A stretch of DNA of 64,000 nucleotides from Escherichia phage moha, in sequence record MN850590.1, one strand, 5' to 3'. The notes under the pieces are model-generated. The model was not told the DNA's origin. It ran no database searches and saw only the letters and a list, made by a program, of their open reading frames with translations. Position 1 is the stretch's first letter; each line of letters opens with the position of its first letter. This document shows positions 7,322-56,013 of this stretch, one piece after another. Position numbers and translations under genes: made by a program.

Positions 7322-7924
7322 ATGCGAAACCAAAATAATGATATTGACTCAATGTTCGAAGAGTTCCGAGATAAGGTAAATCCACCTACGTCTTTAGTTG
7401 ATTCATTACGATATGTTGCAACCGGACGTAAATGGTACTGGTCGTCTTCTTATGAGACCACCGAGAAAACGGCTAGCCATAGCAGAAAATCTTTATTAGC
7501 CCCAGGTATTATGATTCATGATATCGGAGCTATTGCTAAACTAGTTGCAGACCATGATATTAGATTCACCGATTTCGTTGCTCCTACATGGTCTGTTTGT
7601 TGTTTAAACACTGAATGGGAATATATCAGCGAACGCTCTAAAGATTATTATGGTTTTAGAGATAAGCTTCTGAGGTCTAATATGTTTTATATCGATACAG
7701 AAGTTCTAGTCGATAATAAAAAATATTACTTTACGTTAATCATCGATTCTGAAACTATGTATGAAGGCAAGCCTTTGCTTAAAAGAGTTGATGCTTTAAG
7801 TGCTATTGATGCGCTTTATGAAACTATGGTTGTTAGTCCTAATTTCACTAACAATTTAATCCTTGAGCAATTTATTATGGAATGTAGAGAATATGTCAAA
7901 GCCAACCCTATACATGCCAAGTAA
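7322..7924 (+). CDS. hypothetical protein
   Basis: 200 aa from ATG 7322, SD aaggag. Confidence 0.8.
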   Translation: MRNQNNDIDSMFEEFRDKVNPPTSLVDSLRYVATGRKWYWSSSYETTEKTASHSRKSLLAPGIMIHDIGAIAKLVADHDIRFTDFVAPTWSVCCLNTEWEYISERSKDYYGFRDKLLRSNMFYIDTEVLVDNKKYYFTLIIDSETMYEGKPLLKRVDALSAIDALYETMVVSPNFTNNLILEQFIMECREYVKANPIHAK

Positions 7925-8285
7925 GCCCTGGGCGTATGAATACAAGCGTAAATTAATCCCAAATGAAGTACTATTTGGCCCTATTTTAGCTTTAGCATTT
8001 TTAATCTTTATGATTATAGGAGCTGTTTTAGATTCTAGTGAAGTTATATCGTCTGATGCAGTGTTTTTACTTATTATAGCCGGGTCGTTTATTGTGCCAT
8101 TTTTATTAATGCCTATTAACTGGGTGGGATATTGGTACCAAGGACGTCATTATAGAGCTCGAGTACGCGAATGGAAAATTCAATGTGCAAAAGCTCAAGC
8201 TCAGTATGATGAAGCTGTTAAAAAGTATGAATATGAAGAAGCTATGGAATTCGTTAAGGAAATAAGATGCAAAAGCCTGAACTGA
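7893..8285 (+). CDS. membrane protein
   Basis: 130 aa; two predicted TM helices; start 7893 or 7914 uncertain. Confidence 0.65.
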   Translation: MSKPTLYMPSKPWAYEYKRKLIPNEVLFGPILALAFLIFMIIGAVLDSSEVISSDAVFLLIIAGSFIVPFLLMPINWVGYWYQGRHYRARVREWKIQCAKAQAQYDEAVKKYEYEEAMEFVKEIRCKSLN

Positions 8286-8383
8286 ATTTATGCTGTTTAC
8301 GCTTCTCAAATGATTAGTTATAATGAACTCCTAGCTAGACGTGAAAATGAAACAATCGAAAACTTTATTAAGGAATGTAGAAA

Positions 8384-8689
8384 ATGAGTAAGATTATTGA
8401 AATTAAAGTACCAGAGTTTAATGATGCCAAATCCGCTTCAGATGCAATTTATAAACTTCTGAATCAAGCTGAACGTATCGAAGAAGAAGCAACAAAGATC
8501 GCAGACCAATATGCCGTATCATTTTCTGTAGGTGATTATGGTAGCGGTCGTACTTATTATCCTAAGGGTGAAATCGTATCCCAGTGGATGAAAAATGAAA
8601 TTGAAAATAACGGTGGCGATGTTAAGCGTGAAGGTAATGGTTACATTATTACTGAAGGTGCTTGGGTTTCGTCTTCTGCGTTGTGTTAA
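8384..8689 (+). CDS. small protein, paralog family with C-terminal GWVSSS..C
   Basis: 101 aa ending GAWVSSSALC. Confidence 0.75.
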   Translation: MSKIIEIKVPEFNDAKSASDAIYKLLNQAERIEEEATKIADQYAVSFSVGDYGSGRTYYPKGEIVSQWMKNEIENNGGDVKREGNGYIITEGAWVSSSALC

Positions 8690-49378: not shown

Positions 49379-49418
49379 TATAATACCATGGACGGTAAAC
49401 TAATTAAATGAGAGAAAT

Positions 49419-50054
49419 ATGAAAACTACTCCTATTACTATCGCTATTGACGCAATCGTAAAACAAGCTTCTTCTTTGGCTACTATGGCCAAAGTAATTA
49501 GTCAAAACCCTGCTCGTTATAATGCTATTCTAGAAACTCTTCGACGCCCAGGACTTAGCAATTATGAAAGCCGAGTAATTATTACAGGTGTTGGTAAGAA
49601 TGCTAATATTGCAACTAAAGCTTCTGAGACATTTGCTTCACTCGGTATCCCAAGTATGTACTTGAACACCGGGCATTATTCTCACGGTGATGCAGGATTC
49701 ATTGCGCCTAATGATGTGTTGATTCATATTAGTCGTTCTGGTAAGACCGAAGAAATGATAGGTGTTGCTAAACATCTTCGTATGATTCGTCCGAACGTCA
49801 AACAGATTCTGTTGCATTGTAACCCAGACATTCCACAAGAAAATGAAGCCCTTTTTGATTACTCTTTCTGTACAGGCATCGCAGTAGAGGTTGACGAGAA
49901 CTCTTTAGCTCCGACTATGTCTACTACATTGTTGTTAGCGCTTATCGATACGTTTGCTATCAACCTTTCGTCTGAGCGTGGATTTACCTCTAATGACTTC
50001 CTTAAGTTCCACCCTGGTGGTGCACTAGGTGCCATGTTACGAGGCGAACAATGA
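49419..50054 (+). CDS. SIS-domain sugar-phosphate isomerase (KdsD/GutQ arabinose-5-phosphate isomerase-like)
   Basis: 211 aa; GVGKNANIATK...HGDAGF...ISRSGKTEE aligns with KdsD SIS core GMGKSGHIG..HGDLGM..ISNSGES. Confidence 0.8.
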   Translation: MKTTPITIAIDAIVKQASSLATMAKVISQNPARYNAILETLRRPGLSNYESRVIITGVGKNANIATKASETFASLGIPSMYLNTGHYSHGDAGFIAPNDVLIHISRSGKTEEMIGVAKHLRMIRPNVKQILLHCNPDIPQENEALFDYSFCTGIAVEVDENSLAPTMSTTLLLALIDTFAINLSSERGFTSNDFLKFHPGGALGAMLRGEQ

Positions 50055-50194
50055 AAGCAATAACAATAGGACTTTTACTATTGATGCTTGTCATGACTAT
50101 CTACTGGAGCTTAACAGCTCCAGTAATGATTCCAACACTTGTAATTGGATGGATTATGATTGGACTACAAGCAAAGTATGAATGCTTTAACTAG
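50051..50194 (+). CDS. possible 47-aa membrane peptide (not in ORF track)
   Basis: ATGA overlap with SIS gene stop; hydrophobic with IGWIMIG; sits where T4 imm lies. Confidence 0.4.
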   Translation: MKAITIGLLLLMLVMTIYWSLTAPVMIPTLVIGWIMIGLQAKYECFN

Positions 50195-50235
50195 AATAGT
50201 GTACAATACTCCTACTTACCAATGAGGACTTCAAC

Positions 50236-51921
50236 ATGAAAAAAGCTGTTATTCTTGGTGCTGGATTGGCAACTCGTTTATATCCAATAACGCATCATAT
50301 TCCTAAGGTGCTTGTTAACTATAAACAAGACACTATTCTGAGCAATTTGTATACAATTTATTCTGACCTTGGCGCAGATGAAATTATTGTAGTAGTTCAT
50401 TCAAAATTTGCTGAAACTGTTCGAGCTTATTGTGAGCAAGAAGGGTTCAATGTGACTATTCGTACAGTTGATGAAGCGTATGGATCTGCTTATGCTCTTG
50501 CTAAATTACACAAAGATTTAGACGGCCATAATGTAATTGTTAACTGGTGTGATATTATTCCTGATTTTGGTTCATGGTCTTGGAATGTTAACGCAATCTA
50601 TGTTAAAGGTGACGAATGTCGATATAATTTCGACGGTGAAAATATCACTAACGTAGGTTCAACAGGTGGTAATGTTGTAGGAATTTATCAGTTCAAAGAC
50701 TGGGAATTCTATATGGGTTCTACTGATGAAGAAATTCATGAATACTGCAAAGGACGTGATTTCGTAGAATTCCTTTACGCCAGCGCATTCAATAAATCAG
50801 AGCTTATGAATCTAATTGATTTAGGTGATATGCCTAAACTTGAAAAGGCTCATGAAGTTCGTGAACTTAATCGTAGTTTTAATGCAGTTGAAATTGGTGA
50901 AGAAACTGTAACTAAATTCGCATTGACCGAACAGGGTCGAGCTCTTCAGAAAGATGAGATTTCATGGTATCTTAAAGTGAAATCGGATTCAGTTCCTCAG
51001 TTAGTTTCTGTTAATGAAAATAACTTTGAAATGGAACGCATTAAAGGTAAGCCGGCATTTGAATATATTAAATCCAAATCAAGTCTTGCTCGTCCACAAA
51101 TTGTTGATGCAATTTTAGATGCACTGAAATTCAGCACAGACACTTATTTTGTAAGTCCTGAAACTGTTCGTCGTGATTTCACTAAAGAATTCTATACGAA
51201 AGTTATTGATCGTTGTGAAAGCATTCAACCATTGATTGATTCATTTGGTAAAATCACGCATGTGAACTACACTAAGATTGGACGTCTGAAGCCAATGCTG
51301 AAACAAGCTTTAGAACACCTTATTCGTTATCATAACCGTTCTCAGGGGCAGTACTCTGTTATTCACGGTGACCCGAACTTCAGTAATACTATGATTACTG
51401 ATAACGGCGAAGTCAAGTTTATCGACCCTCGTGGATATTTTGGCGAAACCAAGATTTACGGGCCAAAATTGTATGATGAAGCTAAAGTGCTTTATGCTGT
51501 TTCAGGTTATGATGAATTCAATGCTAATCCGACCTGGGGACAGTTTACTATTGATGAAACAACTTGTAATGTGACTATTAACATCAATCCATTAGTTTAC
51601 AAATATGGAAAGATGAGTTCGTTTAACGAGTATCATCATTTGGCAGTGGCAATTATCTGGATTGCATTAGGTGGTTATTTCAAGAATAATCCACTTAAAG
51701 CGGTAGCCGCATATTATAAAGGTATGGAACTTCTGACTAAGCAATTACGTAACATGGGCCGTGTACTTCAGGACGGCTCTATTAGTTATGACGTAGCAGA
51801 ACCTGTAACGGCTACTCTGATTACAAAAAATCCTGGTAAATGGGTACTAACTGATAAAGAAACTGGTGTTTCCTATCGTCCAATCGGTGGCGATATCACT
51901 CATCAATGGGAACGAATCTAA
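50236..51921 (+). CDS. bifunctional sugar-1-phosphate nucleotidyltransferase / APH-choline-kinase-like sugar kinase
   Basis: 561 aa; N-terminal ILGAGLATRL nucleotidyltransferase loop; C-terminal HGDPNFSN...FIDPRGYFG kinase catalytic/Mg motifs. Confidence 0.85.
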   Translation: MKKAVILGAGLATRLYPITHHIPKVLVNYKQDTILSNLYTIYSDLGADEIIVVVHSKFAETVRAYCEQEGFNVTIRTVDEAYGSAYALAKLHKDLDGHNVIVNWCDIIPDFGSWSWNVNAIYVKGDECRYNFDGENITNVGSTGGNVVGIYQFKDWEFYMGSTDEEIHEYCKGRDFVEFLYASAFNKSELMNLIDLGDMPKLEKAHEVRELNRSFNAVEIGEETVTKFALTEQGRALQKDEISWYLKVKSDSVPQLVSVNENNFEMERIKGKPAFEYIKSKSSLARPQIVDAILDALKFSTDTYFVSPETVRRDFTKEFYTKVIDRCESIQPLIDSFGKITHVNYTKIGRLKPMLKQALEHLIRYHNRSQGQYSVIHGDPNFSNTMITDNGEVKFIDPRGYFGETKIYGPKLYDEAKVLYAVSGYDEFNANPTWGQFTIDETTCNVTININPLVYKYGKMSSFNEYHHLAVAIIWIALGGYFKNNPLKAVAAYYKGMELLTKQLRNMGRVLQDGSISYDVAEPVTATLITKNPGKWVLTDKETGVSYRPIGGDITHQWERI

Positions 51922-52307
51922 TGCCCCGTGTAGAAAACATGCTTAATCTTTGTTTTGATGTCGATGATTGCATCACGGAATGGAATAACAATCGTGATTA
52001 CGTGAACTTCAAACCAGACGTCGAAATGGTGTCTGCCATTAATGCCCTGTATGATGCAGGGCATACCATAACGCTTTACACTGCTCGTGGTATGAAGTCA
52101 GTAGGTCCTGGTCGTATAGCAATTGACATTCTCCCAAGTCTGATTCAGAACTTGGAAAACATTGGTTTGAAGTACCATAATTTGCTAACACATAAACCAG
52201 TATATGATTGGATTATCGACGACAAAGCTATGCGTCCTGATGAATTCAAAGCTCTTATGAATAAAGGCGAATTCGAAACATTTAAATCATATAAACCAAA
52301 TCTATAA
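51921..52307 (+). CDS. HAD-superfamily phosphatase
   Basis: 128 aa from ATG 51921 (TAATG overlap); motif I FDVDDCIT, later TARG and IIDDK. Confidence 0.75.
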   Translation: MPRVENMLNLCFDVDDCITEWNNNRDYVNFKPDVEMVSAINALYDAGHTITLYTARGMKSVGPGRIAIDILPSLIQNLENIGLKYHNLLTHKPVYDWIIDDKAMRPDEFKALMNKGEFETFKSYKPNL

Positions 52308-52364
52308 TAATTTAAGTAAGACCTGCAAAAACCATCGCATCAATTAACGTGAGATGCAAAAAAA

Positions 52365-53525
52365 ATGAATACTTTTAAAATCGGAACGAATTTTGATTTA
52401 GCTCTTCTTGATAAAATCGTAGAGCTCAATAAAACCTATCCTAATAGCTTGATAAACGAAGTATATGGCTCTACAAGAGAAATGGCTTTTGTAGCAGCCA
52501 GACCTGATTTTAGGCTTCCTGACGTTGACAAAAAGATGTTAGAAGACTACGTTAAACGTTGTAACGAATTAGGTATTTGCTTTAACTATACACTCAACAC
52601 GATAAATCCTGGTTCAAAAAGAGAACTAGTTGAGTGGAAGAAGAAAGCTATTCAGGATTATGTTCAGTATCTTTGGTCAATAGGCGTATGGCGTATTACT
52701 ATCGCTAACCCTGTTGTTATGGAAATTGTTCGTGAAGTCAATAAAGATATTGAGATTGAAGTTTCAACAATTCTACATGTCGATGCTGTAACTCAAATAA
52801 AATACTTGCATGACCAATATAACATCAAAAAGGTCTGTTGCGGAATTCATAAGAACCGTTCAGTTTCTTTCCTGAAGCGTGCAGCAGAGTTTTGCAATAA
52901 GAACAATATAATATTTGAAGTTCTTGTAAATGAGTTCTGTTCTAATGCTGGTAAAGGGTATACAACACATTGTAGCTATCGTGACTCTTGCTATATTTTC
53001 CATAGTACTGATGTTACCGCTGATGATGCTAAATCCTTAAATGGATATCCAATGCAACACTGCATTAAAGCTCGTGATACAGACCCATTTAACTGGCTGA
53101 GAACTCGTTTTGTTCGTCCTCAAGATTTGAAACTTTATAATGATATTGGTATCACTCAATTCAAAGTTTCAGGACGTACAGGTAGCACAGACTACATTTT
53201 GAAAGTTCTTGAAGCATACGCTTCTGAAAAGTTTGAAGGTAATTTGTTAGAACTGTGGAAGCCTTTAGAGACTATTTTCACTCTTGAAAACGAAACTGAG
53301 TTTTCACATACAGTAAATATTGAAACCTCTTTGTTAGATGGCTTTTTAGAAAAAAGGTGGTTCAGACATCCAGATTTCGATTGTGCTAATGAAATCTGCG
53401 GGACGACGTGTACATATTGTGAAAGATATTATAAACGTCAATTATCTAAAAACGGGTTAGCAGAAAACTCTATATCTATTATTGATATAACTAACTCTGA
53501 TGACGCTTTGAGGTACCCGGAATGA
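52365..53525 (+). CDS. hypothetical protein with C-terminal Cys cluster
   Basis: 386 aa; CANEICGTTCTYC (C-x3-C-x3-C-x2-C) near C-terminus; no confident fold. Confidence 0.85.
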   Translation: MNTFKIGTNFDLALLDKIVELNKTYPNSLINEVYGSTREMAFVAARPDFRLPDVDKKMLEDYVKRCNELGICFNYTLNTINPGSKRELVEWKKKAIQDYVQYLWSIGVWRITIANPVVMEIVREVNKDIEIEVSTILHVDAVTQIKYLHDQYNIKKVCCGIHKNRSVSFLKRAAEFCNKNNIIFEVLVNEFCSNAGKGYTTHCSYRDSCYIFHSTDVTADDAKSLNGYPMQHCIKARDTDPFNWLRTRFVRPQDLKLYNDIGITQFKVSGRTGSTDYILKVLEAYASEKFEGNLLELWKPLETIFTLENETEFSHTVNIETSLLDGFLEKRWFRHPDFDCANEICGTTCTYCERYYKRQLSKNGLAENSISIIDITNSDDALRYPE

Positions 53526-53761
53526 TTTCTAGAAAAACTTTTAACCACCAACTTAATGAAGAGATTTTGACTATGAAACTGAACACTAATGAACAAATTC
53601 TTAAAAAGGCCCTGATGGGCCTTTTTGAAACTAAAGCGGCTAAAGTGATTAAAGAACCTGTTCAATTAGAATACTACGCTGATGCATTTCTTCATAGTGT
53701 TCTTGGAAGTATCGATGCCGAAGCTTTACGTTATATCAATATTGCCAAGAAATTCAAATAA
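53522..53761 (+). CDS. hypothetical small protein (doubtful)
   Basis: 79 aa; contains terminator-like hairpin GGCCC-tgat-GGGCC TTTTT at 53606-53624. Confidence 0.45.
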   Translation: MISRKTFNHQLNEEILTMKLNTNEQILKKALMGLFETKAAKVIKEPVQLEYYADAFLHSVLGSIDAEALRYINIAKKFK

Positions 53762-53784
53762 GCTTTACGAATTGAGTATATAAT
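53762..53784 (+). promoter_or_regulatory. possible middle promoter
   Basis: GCTTTA box, 11 bp, TATAAT; the box motif is duplicated 40 bp upstream. Confidence 0.4.
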
Positions 53785-53802
53785 AATTGTATTGAGGTAA
53801 AC

Positions 53803-54519
53803 ATGGGAAAACATAACACAATGAAATATATCAAAGCCGCAGATTTTCAAACCGCATTTAAAGCAGTCAATCGTGAAATTTTAGAAAACCCGGAATTCGT
53901 AACTGATTCTCGTATTGGACGTTGTAATGAAATTGGGTCTATGACAGTAGTTGTTGACACTCCATCATCATTCAAAATGACCGACCCACGTATTAACCGC
54001 ATCTCTTATGAATATGCCGAAGACTTCTGGAAGTTTATGATTTCTGGTGGTACCAACGCAGAAGAAGCGTTTAAGGCATATCCTAATGTCGCTAAATTTA
54101 TTTCTAAACCAAAATCAGATGTTTTGCCGGCGAACTTCAACACTTTCTATGGTCCTCGCATTGCGGCTCAATTACCAGCTCTTCTAAAAGAACTTAAAGA
54201 GAAGCCTAACTCTCGAAGAGTTGTGTTCCAAATTCTAGAAAGTTCTGATCAGGCTTTGCTTGATTCGGACGAAACGCTTGAATATCCATGTACTGACTCA
54301 GTGACTTATTATATTCGTGATGGTAAGCTTTATACCCACTGTCATATGCGTTCTCAGAACTGTGCTGTTGTTATGCAGTTGGATTTTTATCTCCAAGGAA
54401 AATTACTTCATTATATCGCTAACGAATGTGGTGTAGAAGTTGGTGATTATACTCATACCATGGTAAGTGCCCATGTGTTTGAACGTGATTTTGATTATGT
54501 TAAAGGATTCCTTGACTAA
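53803..54519 (+). CDS. 42: thymidylate-synthase-fold pyrimidine hydroxymethylase (gp42-like dCMP hydroxymethylase, divergent)
   Basis: 238 aa; NSRR...YPCTDSVTYYIRD...MRSQN pattern parallels T4 gp42 DSRR...MCTNTVQYLIRD...MRSND. Confidence 0.7.
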   Translation: MGKHNTMKYIKAADFQTAFKAVNREILENPEFVTDSRIGRCNEIGSMTVVVDTPSSFKMTDPRINRISYEYAEDFWKFMISGGTNAEEAFKAYPNVAKFISKPKSDVLPANFNTFYGPRIAAQLPALLKELKEKPNSRRVVFQILESSDQALLDSDETLEYPCTDSVTYYIRDGKLYTHCHMRSQNCAVVMQLDFYLQGKLLHYIANECGVEVGDYTHTMVSAHVFERDFDYVKGFLD

Positions 54520-55418
54520 TGGCTATTTTCCGCGTACCTATCTTGAGTATGCGGTCTTATGAAACTGGACAGTATGCTATCCTTAAGGATGGCAACTTCC
54601 AACTTCATTTGCACCGTGCTAATCCAGGTGATGTGATTACATATCCACGTAATGCATCTGATATTAAAGAATGTGAACGTCTTTTCCCAGAATTTAAGTT
54701 TGTTCCATTATGGTATAAAGATAACGCGTATAACACTCGTAAATATTTCTGGTCTGAAAATGAATTTGTGGTTGATTCATTAATTGCTTATTATGATTGT
54801 GATTTTCTAATCACAGATATCACTGGATATGATGGTGCTTTTGATGTAGAATTCAATTTCAATATCACTGCAGACCCTAATAAACCACGTTTTTATATTG
54901 ACGAATTCTTAAAAACTGATATGTTGTCGGTTAATCGTTCACTTCAAACTACTGTGTTGAATGAACGTCAAAAAGAAGTGCTGGTTAACGCAGGTGCAAA
55001 TGGTAATAAGATTATCGTAACGCAGAAAGTTATACGTCCTTCCATCATGCAGCGTCTTGTAGGTGATTTGGCTCCTATTCATCTAGATGGTATTTTTCAT
55101 CCATTTCGAATTAGTGACCCATGCTATCGTTTTGAACAAGTGGTTGAATGTGCAATTCAATTAGGTCAACCGCTTTATATAACCGATCCAAATAATAGCT
55201 TCGACAGAAATAAGTATCCTGAAGAAGCGTTGATTCGAATTTTTAAACCAACTAAAACTGAGTACTATCAAATTCTTAAAGGACGTCCGAAGATTCAATA
55301 TTTCGAAAATCCTGAAGAAGTATTCCATCCAGGTCTTGGTGAGTTCATCTACTTTAATGCTTTAATTTCTTCGCCGTATAATATACCTAAATACGAAGAT
55401 GTCGTAATCGAGGAATAA
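54519..55418 (+). CDS. hypothetical protein at beta-glucosyltransferase position (candidate transferase)
   Basis: 299 aa; TAATG overlap with upstream gene; no motif recognised. Confidence 0.8.
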   Translation: MAIFRVPILSMRSYETGQYAILKDGNFQLHLHRANPGDVITYPRNASDIKECERLFPEFKFVPLWYKDNAYNTRKYFWSENEFVVDSLIAYYDCDFLITDITGYDGAFDVEFNFNITADPNKPRFYIDEFLKTDMLSVNRSLQTTVLNERQKEVLVNAGANGNKIIVTQKVIRPSIMQRLVGDLAPIHLDGIFHPFRISDPCYRFEQVVECAIQLGQPLYITDPNNSFDRNKYPEEALIRIFKPTKTEYYQILKGRPKIQYFENPEEVFHPGLGEFIYFNALISSPYNIPKYEDVVIEE

Positions 55419-55419
55419 A

Positions 55420-55968
55420 ATGGCTAAAATTATTTTAGTAGACGGCCCAGATAATGCTGGTAAAACAACTTTCATTAATGACATAATGGAAATTAGTGAA
55501 AGATATGTAAAGATTGATTTCCCTAAACGAACAGTTGATGGACGTTTCGATGTTAAGTCTCGAAATGAAGTTGGCTGTTTCGAAACGATGTTGAATTATT
55601 TAGACCCTACTAAGATTTATCTGTTAGACCGTGGATATATTAGTAACTGGGTTTATGGACGTATTCGACAAGATGCGGACTCGGTTCTTGATGTTTATGA
55701 ACAGGATTATGTTCGTCTTTGCCAAAACCATGATGTGTTCACAATTATTTTAACACGTAACGAAATGACTGAAAGTTTTGAAGACGACCTTATTACTTTG
55801 TCTTCATTCGGTTTTAATACAGTCATTTCACATTTTGAAGAGTTTGCAATTCATAACAAAATCCAAACGTATCAATTACTTAATCATGATGGTGCTAACA
55901 AAGTTATAGGATTTAATGCAAGCGAACGTAATGATTTGATTACAGAAATCATCAAATGGGCTCGTTAA
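55420..55968 (+). CDS. P-loop kinase (nucleoside/nucleotide kinase-like)
   Basis: 182 aa; Walker A VDGPDNAGKTT; LLDRGY motif. Confidence 0.8.
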   Translation: MAKIILVDGPDNAGKTTFINDIMEISERYVKIDFPKRTVDGRFDVKSRNEVGCFETMLNYLDPTKIYLLDRGYISNWVYGRIRQDADSVLDVYEQDYVRLCQNHDVFTIILTRNEMTESFEDDLITLSSFGFNTVISHFEEFAIHNKIQTYQLLNHDGANKVIGFNASERNDLITEIIKWAR

Positions 55969-55987
55969 GAGCCATTTAAAGTTTTAA

Positions 55988-56013
55988 ATGCTGTATAACC
56001 CTTAGTATATAAT
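55988..56013 (+). promoter_or_regulatory. possible middle promoter for uvsX
   Basis: ATGCTGTA box, ~13 bp, TATAAT. Confidence 0.35.

Follow-up and report, generated by a model that had tools for sequence, protein, structure and literature searches.

The closest experimentally described relative of the protein studied here is gp48 of phage RB69, which is a 5-hydroxy-dCMP (5hodCMP) synthase and not a dCMP hydroxymethylase (Lee et al., NAR 2026, PMC13326640; 2025 preprint). Expression of gp48 in E. coli, most effectively together with the phage dNMP kinase, leads to 5-hydroxy-deoxycytidine (5hodC) in DNA. This product elutes together with an authentic 5hodC standard and is heavier by 2 Da after growth under 18O2 (PMC13326640), and the new oxygen thus derives from O2. 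Assayed side by side, T4 gp42 produced 5hmdC and RB69 gp48 produced 5hodC; purified gp48 is yellow (absorption peaks at 370 and 455 nm) and carries a loosely bound, FMN-like flavin that it releases as FMN (PMC13326640). All nine of the other D169N homologs that were assayed likewise made 5hodC (PMC13326640). A crystal structure with flavin and in vitro reconstitution are reported for the homolog from phage HY126 (He et al., Nat Chem Biol 2026, as cited in PMC13326640), and this homolog and gp80 of Acinetobacter phage DLP3 are described as further 5hodCMP synthases (PMC13326640; He et al. 2026, as cited there). RB69 virion DNA is reported to contain mono- and poly-arabinosylated 5-hydroxycytosine (5hoC), joined by an ether linkage at C5 (PMC13326640). 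Thomas 2018 (PMC6024577) had read the modification as arabinosyl-hydroxymethylcytosine, with hydroxymethylcytosine (hmC) inferred from homology to gp42; that reading is superseded by the 2026 NMR and MS work.

The window analyzed here is a 64,000-nucleotide stretch of Escherichia phage moha (sequence record MN850590.1). Working from the letters alone, an initial annotation had flagged the ORF at 53803..54519 as a strongly diverged hydroxymethylase of the thymidylate synthase (TS) fold, possibly with altered specificity or representing a replaced gene. The oddity is real, yet it is already explained, as the enzyme is already known from the characterization of RB69 gp48. We assign the ORF, with a probability of about 95%, as encoding the 5hodCMP synthase of an RB69-like (Mosigvirus) phage; the allele itself is known from sequence. 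Table 1 lists the features of the locus. The protein is identical to RB69 gp48 (ORF048c, NP_861738.1), an experimentally characterized member of the family, at 236 of 238 residues (99%), and the two substitutions (N85D and V107A) are conservative and lie away from the active-site motifs. Proteins 100% identical to it are present in phages JK42, phiE142, and NHEP29. PDB chains 9iqc, 9ir2, and 9iqu are ∼98% identical (five differences) and are named merely “Thymidylate synthase” in the PDB; we infer that they belong to the work of He et al. The protein is expected to work as RB69 gp48 and the PDB chains do. More distant homologs occur in Acinetobacter Lazarusvirus (69% identical) and in Rhizobium Pootjesviridae (32%), the latter with the same active-site signature. 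The 6 kb surrounding the gene share 98.2 to 98.6% DNA identity with many Mosigvirus (RB69-like) genomes, and public records name the gene thymidylate synthase, thyA, dCMP hydroxymethylase, or hypothetical protein.

Table 1. Features of the putative 5hodCMP synthase gene and its neighborhood in the phage moha window
Feature	Coordinates	Strand	Basis or remark
Predicted arabinose-5-phosphate isomerase, RB69 gp55 homolog, 211 aa	49419..50054	+	Pfam SIS domain, E = 1.9e-10
Predicted bifunctional sugar kinase/nucleotidyltransferase, RB69 gp52:53, AfhE-like, 561 aa	50236..51921	+	Pfam NTP_transferase, E = 8.4e-10, N-terminal part
Predicted HAD-type sugar phosphatase, RB69 gp51, AfhF-like, 133 aa	51906..52307	+	PHROG 1238, E = 1.5e-42
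U32-family Fe-S protein, RB69 gp50 homolog, 386 aa	52365..53525	+	PF01136 Peptidase_U32, E = 7.3e-11
Small ORF, RB69 gp49 type, 79 aa	53522..53761	+	Start overlaps U32 stop codon; PHROG 8601, E = 5e-52
Putative T4-type middle (MotA-dependent) promoter, GCTTTA-11 nt-TATAAT	53762..53784	+	18 nt from promoter end to start codon
Shine-Dalgarno GAGG	53794..53797	+	5 nt spacing to ATG; read from sequence
Probable 5hodCMP synthase gene, RB69 gp48 allele	53803..54519	+	ATG-started ORF, 238 aa
S137-R138-R139	54211..54219	+	Arginines align with ThyA R126/R127 (phosphate binding from partner subunit); invariant in the alignment
E160-Y-P-C163	54280..54291	+	C163 = ThyA C146, catalytic nucleophile; E160 at ThyA L143 (L143E)
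Y161-P-C163-T-D165 motif	54283..54297	+	Read from sequence
M182-R-S-Q-N186 motif	54346..54360	+	Read from sequence
R183-S184-Q185-N186	54349..54360	+	N186 at ThyA D169/T4 D171, published 5hodCMP synthase diagnostic
D194	54382..54384	+	ThyA N177/T4 D179 position; cytosine over uracil specificity
Predicted DNA arabinosyltransferase 1, RB69 gp46:47 homolog, 299 aa	54519..55418	+	Start overlaps synthase stop codon; PHROG 3891, E = 3.5e-156
P-loop nucleotide-kinase-like protein, RB69 gp45 homolog (RB69p045), 182 aa	55420..55968	+	PHROG 761 “thymidylate kinase”, E = 1.6e-45

The product has the TS fold: PF00303 (Thymidylat_synt) matches its C-terminal half at 56.9 bits (E = 2.3e-15), above the 24.3-bit cut-off, and its full length is matched by PHROG 160 (“thymidylate synthase”; E = 7e-47). 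An AlphaFold2 model from the single sequence was too poor to use (mean pLDDT 37.4), and the close sequence match in the PDB renders it superfluous. The fold, together with a map position between gene 43 and uvsX that is that of gene 42 in T4, would suit a diverged but ordinary folate-dependent dCMP hydroxymethylase, that is, a gp42 ortholog making hydroxymethyl-dCMP. Several records indeed carry the name “dCMP hydroxymethylase”, and hmC was what Thomas 2018 (PMC6024577) inferred. We consider this explanation very unlikely. Identity to T4 gp42 is just 25% (54 of 218 aligned residues; 53.5 bits), compared with 62% for gp43, 68% for UvsX, 77% for gp44, and 86% for gp41 and their T4 counterparts. 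The excess divergence that had been noticed is therefore borne out, and the ordinary high identity to characterized dCMP hydroxymethylases expected of an ortholog was not seen. E. coli ThyA scores 57.4 bits (30% identity across 115 residues of the C-terminal core), and in the PDB ranking all T4 gp42 chains fall behind true thymidylate synthases and MilA, with none of them among the best 60 matches. A ThyA score close to that of gp42, taken with this ranking, points to a separate branch of the superfamily occupying the map position of gene 42, and not to a drifted ortholog. With gp42 no nearer a relative than ThyA or MilA, the gene looks displaced, in keeping with the suggestion that it had been replaced.

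The active site was compared in a MAFFT alignment of the window protein with homologs from Dhakavirus JS10, Acinetobacter phage Konradin, and Rhizobium phage RHph_I46, with hydroxymethylase-type sequences (Bacteroides phage BF503P4, Aeromonas phage 31 gp42, and T4 gp42), and with E. coli ThyA. Residues were mapped programmatically to E. coli ThyA numbering; the N-terminal half of the alignment is less reliable. Columns Y94, R126/R127, C146, R166, S167, and H207 are invariant across all sequences, and the catalytic pattern first read from the ORF (SRR, the Cys of YPCTD, and MRSQN) is present in full. The MRSQN motif is also found in all 15 related loci from IMG/VR. At the positions whose roles are described in PMC13326640 (L143, C146, and N177D), the window protein has E160, C163, and D194. 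Two of these, the Asp at the N177 position and the acidic residue at L143, are as in gp42, the latter being shared with hydroxymethylases generally, and to this extent they favor a hydroxymethylase. The D169N replacement, which is stated in PMC13326640 to be diagnostic of 5hodCMP synthases, is present as N186; the folate-using relatives all have Asp there.

Further replacements in the window protein are E58 to F75, W80 to A97, C168 to Q185, and G173 to V190, the first two mapped toward the N terminus, where the alignment is weaker. The set F75/A97/Q185/N186/V190 is common to the window protein and the JS10, Konradin, and RHph_I46 homologs, and it is missing from T4 gp42, Aeromonas gp42, the Bacteroides phage homolog, and ThyA. 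The folate-site residues of gp42, Asp171, Glu60, and Trp82 (ThyA D169, E58, and W80), which the two gp42s, the Bacteroides homolog, and ThyA retain, are thus Asn, Phe, and Ala here, the latter two in the region of weaker alignment. We take ThyA E58, W80, D169, and G173, from our knowledge of TS structures, to line the folate site, and their joint loss fits a cofactor switch away from folate. For RB69 gp48 the folate-dependent reading has already been refuted by published assay, in which T4 gp42 gave 5hmdC and gp48 gave 5hodC with its oxygen from 18O2 (PMC13326640), and RB69 DNA reportedly contains 5hoC ethers (PMC13326640). The proposal of an altered product specificity is therefore upheld by a 99%-identical enzyme; by the same result, and by N186 at the Asp169 position, the label “hydroxymethylase” has to be withdrawn.

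The genes flanking the ORF run in the order gene 43, SIS isomerase, kinase/nucleotidyltransferase, HAD phosphatase, U32 protein, small ORF, TS homolog, glycosyltransferase, kinase-like protein, and uvsX. This order is collinear with RB69 gp55 to gp44 and agrees with the published RB69 cluster at each gene, which places the TS homolog within a 5hoC glycosylation cluster, with an arabinosyltransferase-1 homolog downstream and NDP-sugar genes upstream. The gp55 homolog is labeled arabinose 5-phosphate isomerase in NRG-P0074 and RB69, as well as in Table 1 of PMC13326640. The function of RB69 gp52:53 (AfhE-like) as a sugar kinase/nucleotidyltransferase is reported in PMC13326640, as is the role of the HAD phosphatase in UDP-arabinose synthesis for the HY126 and RB69 homologs. 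The 299-aa gene has the same position as RB69 ORF046c/047c, for which arabinosyltransferase 1 function is predicted (PMC13326640, Table 1); its product stands in the position of the β-glucosyltransferase, and direct comparison detected no similarity to T4 β-gt.

Immediately upstream of the TS homolog, the segment 53762..53784 is a probable T4-type middle promoter, typed as MotA-dependent on what we take to be the T4 MotA-box consensus. Across the window, the pattern GCTTNA-N10-13-TANNNT occurs in 46 copies, this one included, against 14.2 ± 4.2 expected (about three-fold). A scan for σ70 promoters and terminators between 51800 and 56200 found no −35/−10 pair upstream of the synthase gene; its 15 hits compare with 17.1 expected and are not above chance.

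The U32-family protein encoded two genes upstream recurs alongside this type of TS homolog. Homologs of at least 80% identity are present in 221 phage records, and the host genera listed for them (all but seven names with low counts) belong to Enterobacterales or are Shewanella, with no Acinetobacter or Rhizobium phage among them. In 15 IMG/VR loci retrieved with a phage-U32 profile, an MRSQN-type TS homolog lies immediately downstream of the U32 gene in every case, with a chorismate mutase between the two in 13. Such linkage raises the alternative that the TS homolog is not self-sufficient and is instead a hydroxylase subunit working only with the adjacent U32 Fe-S protein; we give this no more than a very small chance. 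In E. coli, gp48 yielded 5hodC by itself or when joined only by the dNMP kinase (PMC13326640); Konradin, DLP3 (per PMC13326640), and Dhakavirus JS10 have the TS homolog in a cluster that contains no U32 gene; and the HY126 enzyme reportedly makes 5hodCMP in vitro without U32 (PMC13326640). Also counted among carriers of the TS homolog are 91 Acinetobacter phage records that match it as a query, the sampled ones with a ∼69%-identical copy; the Acinetobacter and Rhizobium phages that carry it are without the U32/chorismate mutase module.

That the gene encodes a thymidylate synthase or a dUMP-specific enzyme, as most automated annotations have it (Pfam, NCBIfam, and PHROG each give “thymidylate synthase” as the best name, and many records follow), is close to untenable, because the NCBIfam TS models score 17 to 68 bits against cut-offs of 108 to 427 (e.g., 68 against 174.55), below the equivalog level for ThyA (EC 2.1.1.45), the uracil-selecting Asn177 is replaced by Asp (D194), the final stretch of ThyA, ∼50 residues down to its C terminus, has no counterpart, the Pfam match is limited to the C-terminal half, and RB69 carries a separate, ordinary td thymidylate synthase next to frd, so that its dTMP supply is independent of gp48.

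We return to the assignment as a 5hodCMP synthase. Flavin- and O2-dependent hydroxylation of dCMP is ascribed to the window protein by way of its likeness to RB69 gp48 and, reportedly, the HY126 enzyme. As across TS-family enzymes, Cys163 would add to C6 of dCMP and render C5 nucleophilic, Asp194 (the ThyA N177 position) being the residue expected to select cytosine. The C5 enamine would then attack an oxygenated flavin, of the C4a-hydroperoxide type, in place of the methylene of CH2-tetrahydrofolate; the replacements D169 to N186, E58 to F75, W80 to A97, and G173 to V190 would take the place of the folate site, fitting the change of cofactor. Elimination of the cysteine would restore the aromaticity of the ring and release 5hodCMP, and a reductant would recycle the flavin. 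The redox cycle, the reductant, and the order of steps are modeled on TS-family and flavin-monooxygenase chemistry. Thereafter, the phage dNMP kinase and host kinases would convert 5hodCMP to the triphosphate, the polymerase would insert 5hoC instead of C, and the adjacent arabinosyltransferase, with a second one elsewhere in the genome, would add arabinose to the 5-OH. The donor UDP-arabinose would come from the upstream isomerase, kinase/uridylyltransferase, and phosphatase genes, and the arabinosylated DNA would withstand host nucleases. Phosphorylation of 5hodCMP by the phage dNMP kinase, incorporation, and arabinosylation with UDP-arabinose are shown or predicted in PMC13326640.

The conserved U32 gene may have a role of its own. 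U32 proteins with assigned roles are all tied to O2-independent, prephenate-dependent hydroxylation, and they include RlhA (5-hydroxycytidine in 23S rRNA), TrhP (5-hydroxyuridine in tRNA), and UbiU/UbiV (ubiquinone) (PMC10990095; see also PMC5727448 and PMC6599085). RB69 gp50 is listed only as a “sugar or heterocycle reductase” in PMC13326640, the text of which mentions neither U32 nor prephenate. The 386-aa protein of the window could not be placed in a U32 subfamily: it is 18 to 20% identical to all four E. coli paralogs (UbiU, UbiV, RlhA, and TrhP), with a single weak match, to UbiU (E = 9e-4). Of the four cysteine columns that bind the cluster in these paralogs, three are retained, and the protein has an extra C-terminal C-x4-C-x3-C-x2-C group. 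Between the window and Shewanella phage Thanatos-2, the U32 proteins are 82% identical, the TS homologs 71%, and the UvsX proteins 68%.

Chorismate mutase makes prephenate. Seven phage genomes of other lineages (from six named genera, plus the unclassified Thanatos-2) encode a type II chorismate mutase between the U32 protein and the TS homolog; all seven matches exceed the Pfam cut-off, and the six catalytic residues are invariant across the seven aligned sequences. The Mosigviruses, the window included, have no such gene, and its place is taken by the unrelated 79-aa ORF. A chorismate mutase profile had no match in the whole window, and with the seven mutase sequences as tblastn queries no significant hit came up there or in the portions of RB69 examined. 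The idea that the 79-aa ORF is itself a diverged mutase was dropped: it has no Pfam or NCBIfam match, hhalign gives a probability of 0.06%, and ORFs of its type coexist with a chorismate mutase in Yersinia phages, which makes it a separate gene.

We tentatively propose, at somewhat less than even odds and by inference from gene context, that the U32 protein and a phage or host chorismate mutase form an O2-independent, prephenate-dependent route to 5-hydroxycytosine, of which the TS-fold hydroxylase is the aerobic half. The U32 protein (gp50 homolog) would be the candidate O2-independent hydroxylase, acting at cytosine C5 and fed by phage or host chorismate mutase; Mosigviruses would depend on host PheA/TyrA for prephenate. 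Two routes of this kind could allow these phages, whose hosts are facultative anaerobes, to modify their DNA also in the gut, where a lack of oxygen would disable the flavin/O2 enzyme. The whole U32/mutase module is missing from Dhakavirus JS10, an E. coli phage, and the module is thus not essential for 5hoC as such; JS10 also breaks the rule, which we had considered, that phages of facultatively anaerobic hosts have U32. A link between U32 or prephenate and 5-hydroxycytosine may already be published.

Correct naming of this gene matters, as it commits RB69-like phages to 5-hydroxycytosine DNA, a chemistry recognized only in 2025-2026 that changes the way RB69-like therapeutic phages look to restriction, CRISPR, and type IV systems. 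The enzyme further shows clearly how the scaffold of a folate enzyme has been reused for flavin/O2 hydroxylation. If the proposal for the U32 protein is true, the phage protein would be the first U32 enzyme linked to a DNA precursor, as a prephenate-dependent, O2-independent nucleobase hydroxylase, and it would account for the ability of a modification pathway that needs O2 to serve phages of gut bacteria.

Set against the known systems, the window protein is most like RB69 gp48, sharing its length, its signature (C146, L143E, D169N, and N177D), and the neighborhood U32-small ORF-synthase-arabinosyltransferase-kinase-uvsX. With T4 gp42 it has in common the Cys nucleophile, the Arg pair, the Arg-Ser motif, the Asp at the cytosine-selecting position, and the acidic L143 position, as well as the TS fold and the map position between gene 43 and uvsX; in both systems the enzyme would carry out the initial C5 modification, on dCMP before replication, with glycosylation following in DNA. 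It differs from gp42 in having N186, F75, and A97 for D171, E60, and W82, and, by the evidence for RB69 gp48, in using flavin and O2 instead of CH2-tetrahydrofolate and giving a 5-OH instead of a 5-CH2OH product (PMC13326640). MilA, the mildiomycin CMP 5-hydroxymethylase (PDB 5b6d and 5jnh), is by contrast folate-dependent, acts on CMP, and forms a hydroxymethyl product, and at ∼325 to 342 residues it has additional C-terminal sequence. Relative to E. coli ThyA, the protein keeps Y94, R126/R127, C146, R166, S167, and H207 but carries N177D, D169N, E58F, W80A, and L143E, and its predicted substrate, cofactor, and product are each different.

Gene order around the U32-family Fe-S protein suggests a route to 5-hydroxycytosine whose hydroxylation step would need prephenate, supplied by chorismate mutase, but no O2. 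Comparison of the U32 loci (the window and the comparison phage loci L011, L012, L015-L019 and L023-L037) shows that a type II chorismate mutase gene lies between U32 and the thymidylate synthase (TS) homolog in 13 of the 15 IMG/VR loci found with the phage-U32 profile; the same order is found in all seven of the other annotated phages checked (7/7). Homologs of U32 at least 80% identical occur in 221 phage records, and the host genera listed for them are all members of the Enterobacterales or Shewanella, with no Acinetobacter or Rhizobium phages among the genera listed at that level of identity. The slot held by chorismate mutase in other genera is filled in the window by a 79-aa ORF. A relationship between this ORF and chorismate mutase was ruled out by profile comparison (hhalign probability 0.06%); Yersinia phages TG1 and phiR1-RT carry both a homolog of the ORF and a chorismate mutase.

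An alignment of the window TS homolog (53803..54519) with homologs from JS10, Konradin, RHph_I46 and BF503P4, gp42 of Aeromonas phage 31, T4 gp42 and ThyA reveals residues common to the hydroxylase-type homologs beyond the published D169N: E58F, W80A, C168Q and G173V (ThyA numbering). The corresponding motif of Shewanella phage Thanatos-2 is RSEN; position 168 is thus variable, and N169 is kept. Provided that a crystal structure confirms the alignment, these four substitutions could serve as added diagnostic positions.

Coordinates of features in and around the modification cluster
Feature	Position	Strand	Remark
Kinase/nucleotidyltransferase, 561 aa	50236..51921	+	one unbroken ORF
U32-family Fe-S protein	52365..53525	+	directly 5' of the 5hodCMP synthase gene
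79-aa ORF (RB69 gp49 type, PHROG 8601)	53522..53761	+	ATGA overlap of its start codon with the U32 stop
Arabinosyltransferase, 299 aa	54519..55418	+	one unbroken ORF
MotA-box-like copies, examples	39980, 43213, 44618, 50184, 53762, 55359	+	pattern match

The RB69 reference record (L004) divides the arabinosyltransferase (7598-8498; ORF046c/047c) and the kinase/nucleotidyltransferase (11095-12781; ORF052c/053c) into two pieces each, whereas both are intact in the window, in line with the published interpretation of the RB69 splits as sequencing errors (PMC13326640). Public records that match window 49400-56000 annotate the cluster inconsistently and in many cases incorrectly. The 5hodCMP synthase is labeled thymidylate synthase, thyA, dCMP hydroxymethylase or hypothetical protein. 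For the kinase/nucleotidyltransferase the names “dCMP deaminase” and “GlmU” are used, and for the HAD phosphatase “phosphoheptose isomerase”; U32 appears either as “collagenase-like protease” or as “enzyme involved in UDP-arabinose biosynthesis”.

The MotA-box-like pattern GCTTNA-N10-13-TANNNT occurs 46 times across the window (14.2 ± 4.2 expected from shuffling), and several plus-strand copies lie just 5' of early or middle genes. This is consistent with T4-type middle promoters.

Homing-endonuclease genes are variably present within the cluster (window, L001, L016 and L017 compared). NRG-P0074 and phage a20 have one between the nucleotidyltransferase and HAD phosphatase genes (L001, 6407-7168), in Edwardsiella phage PEi26 and Serratia phage X20 a seg-like gene separates the HAD gene from U32 (L016 and L017, 552-1190), and the window has none at about 51900-52365. 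In T4, imm and imm.1 separate gene 43 from gene 42 (L002, 12374-13014), whereas in RB69 the arabinose/U32 cluster occupies the gap between gene 43 and the synthase gene, with imm/imm.1 placed on the far side of dmd, close to sp (L004, 2012-2690). This difference in imm/imm.1 placement puts the modification module at a rearranged junction; the window (49400-53800) follows the RB69 map.
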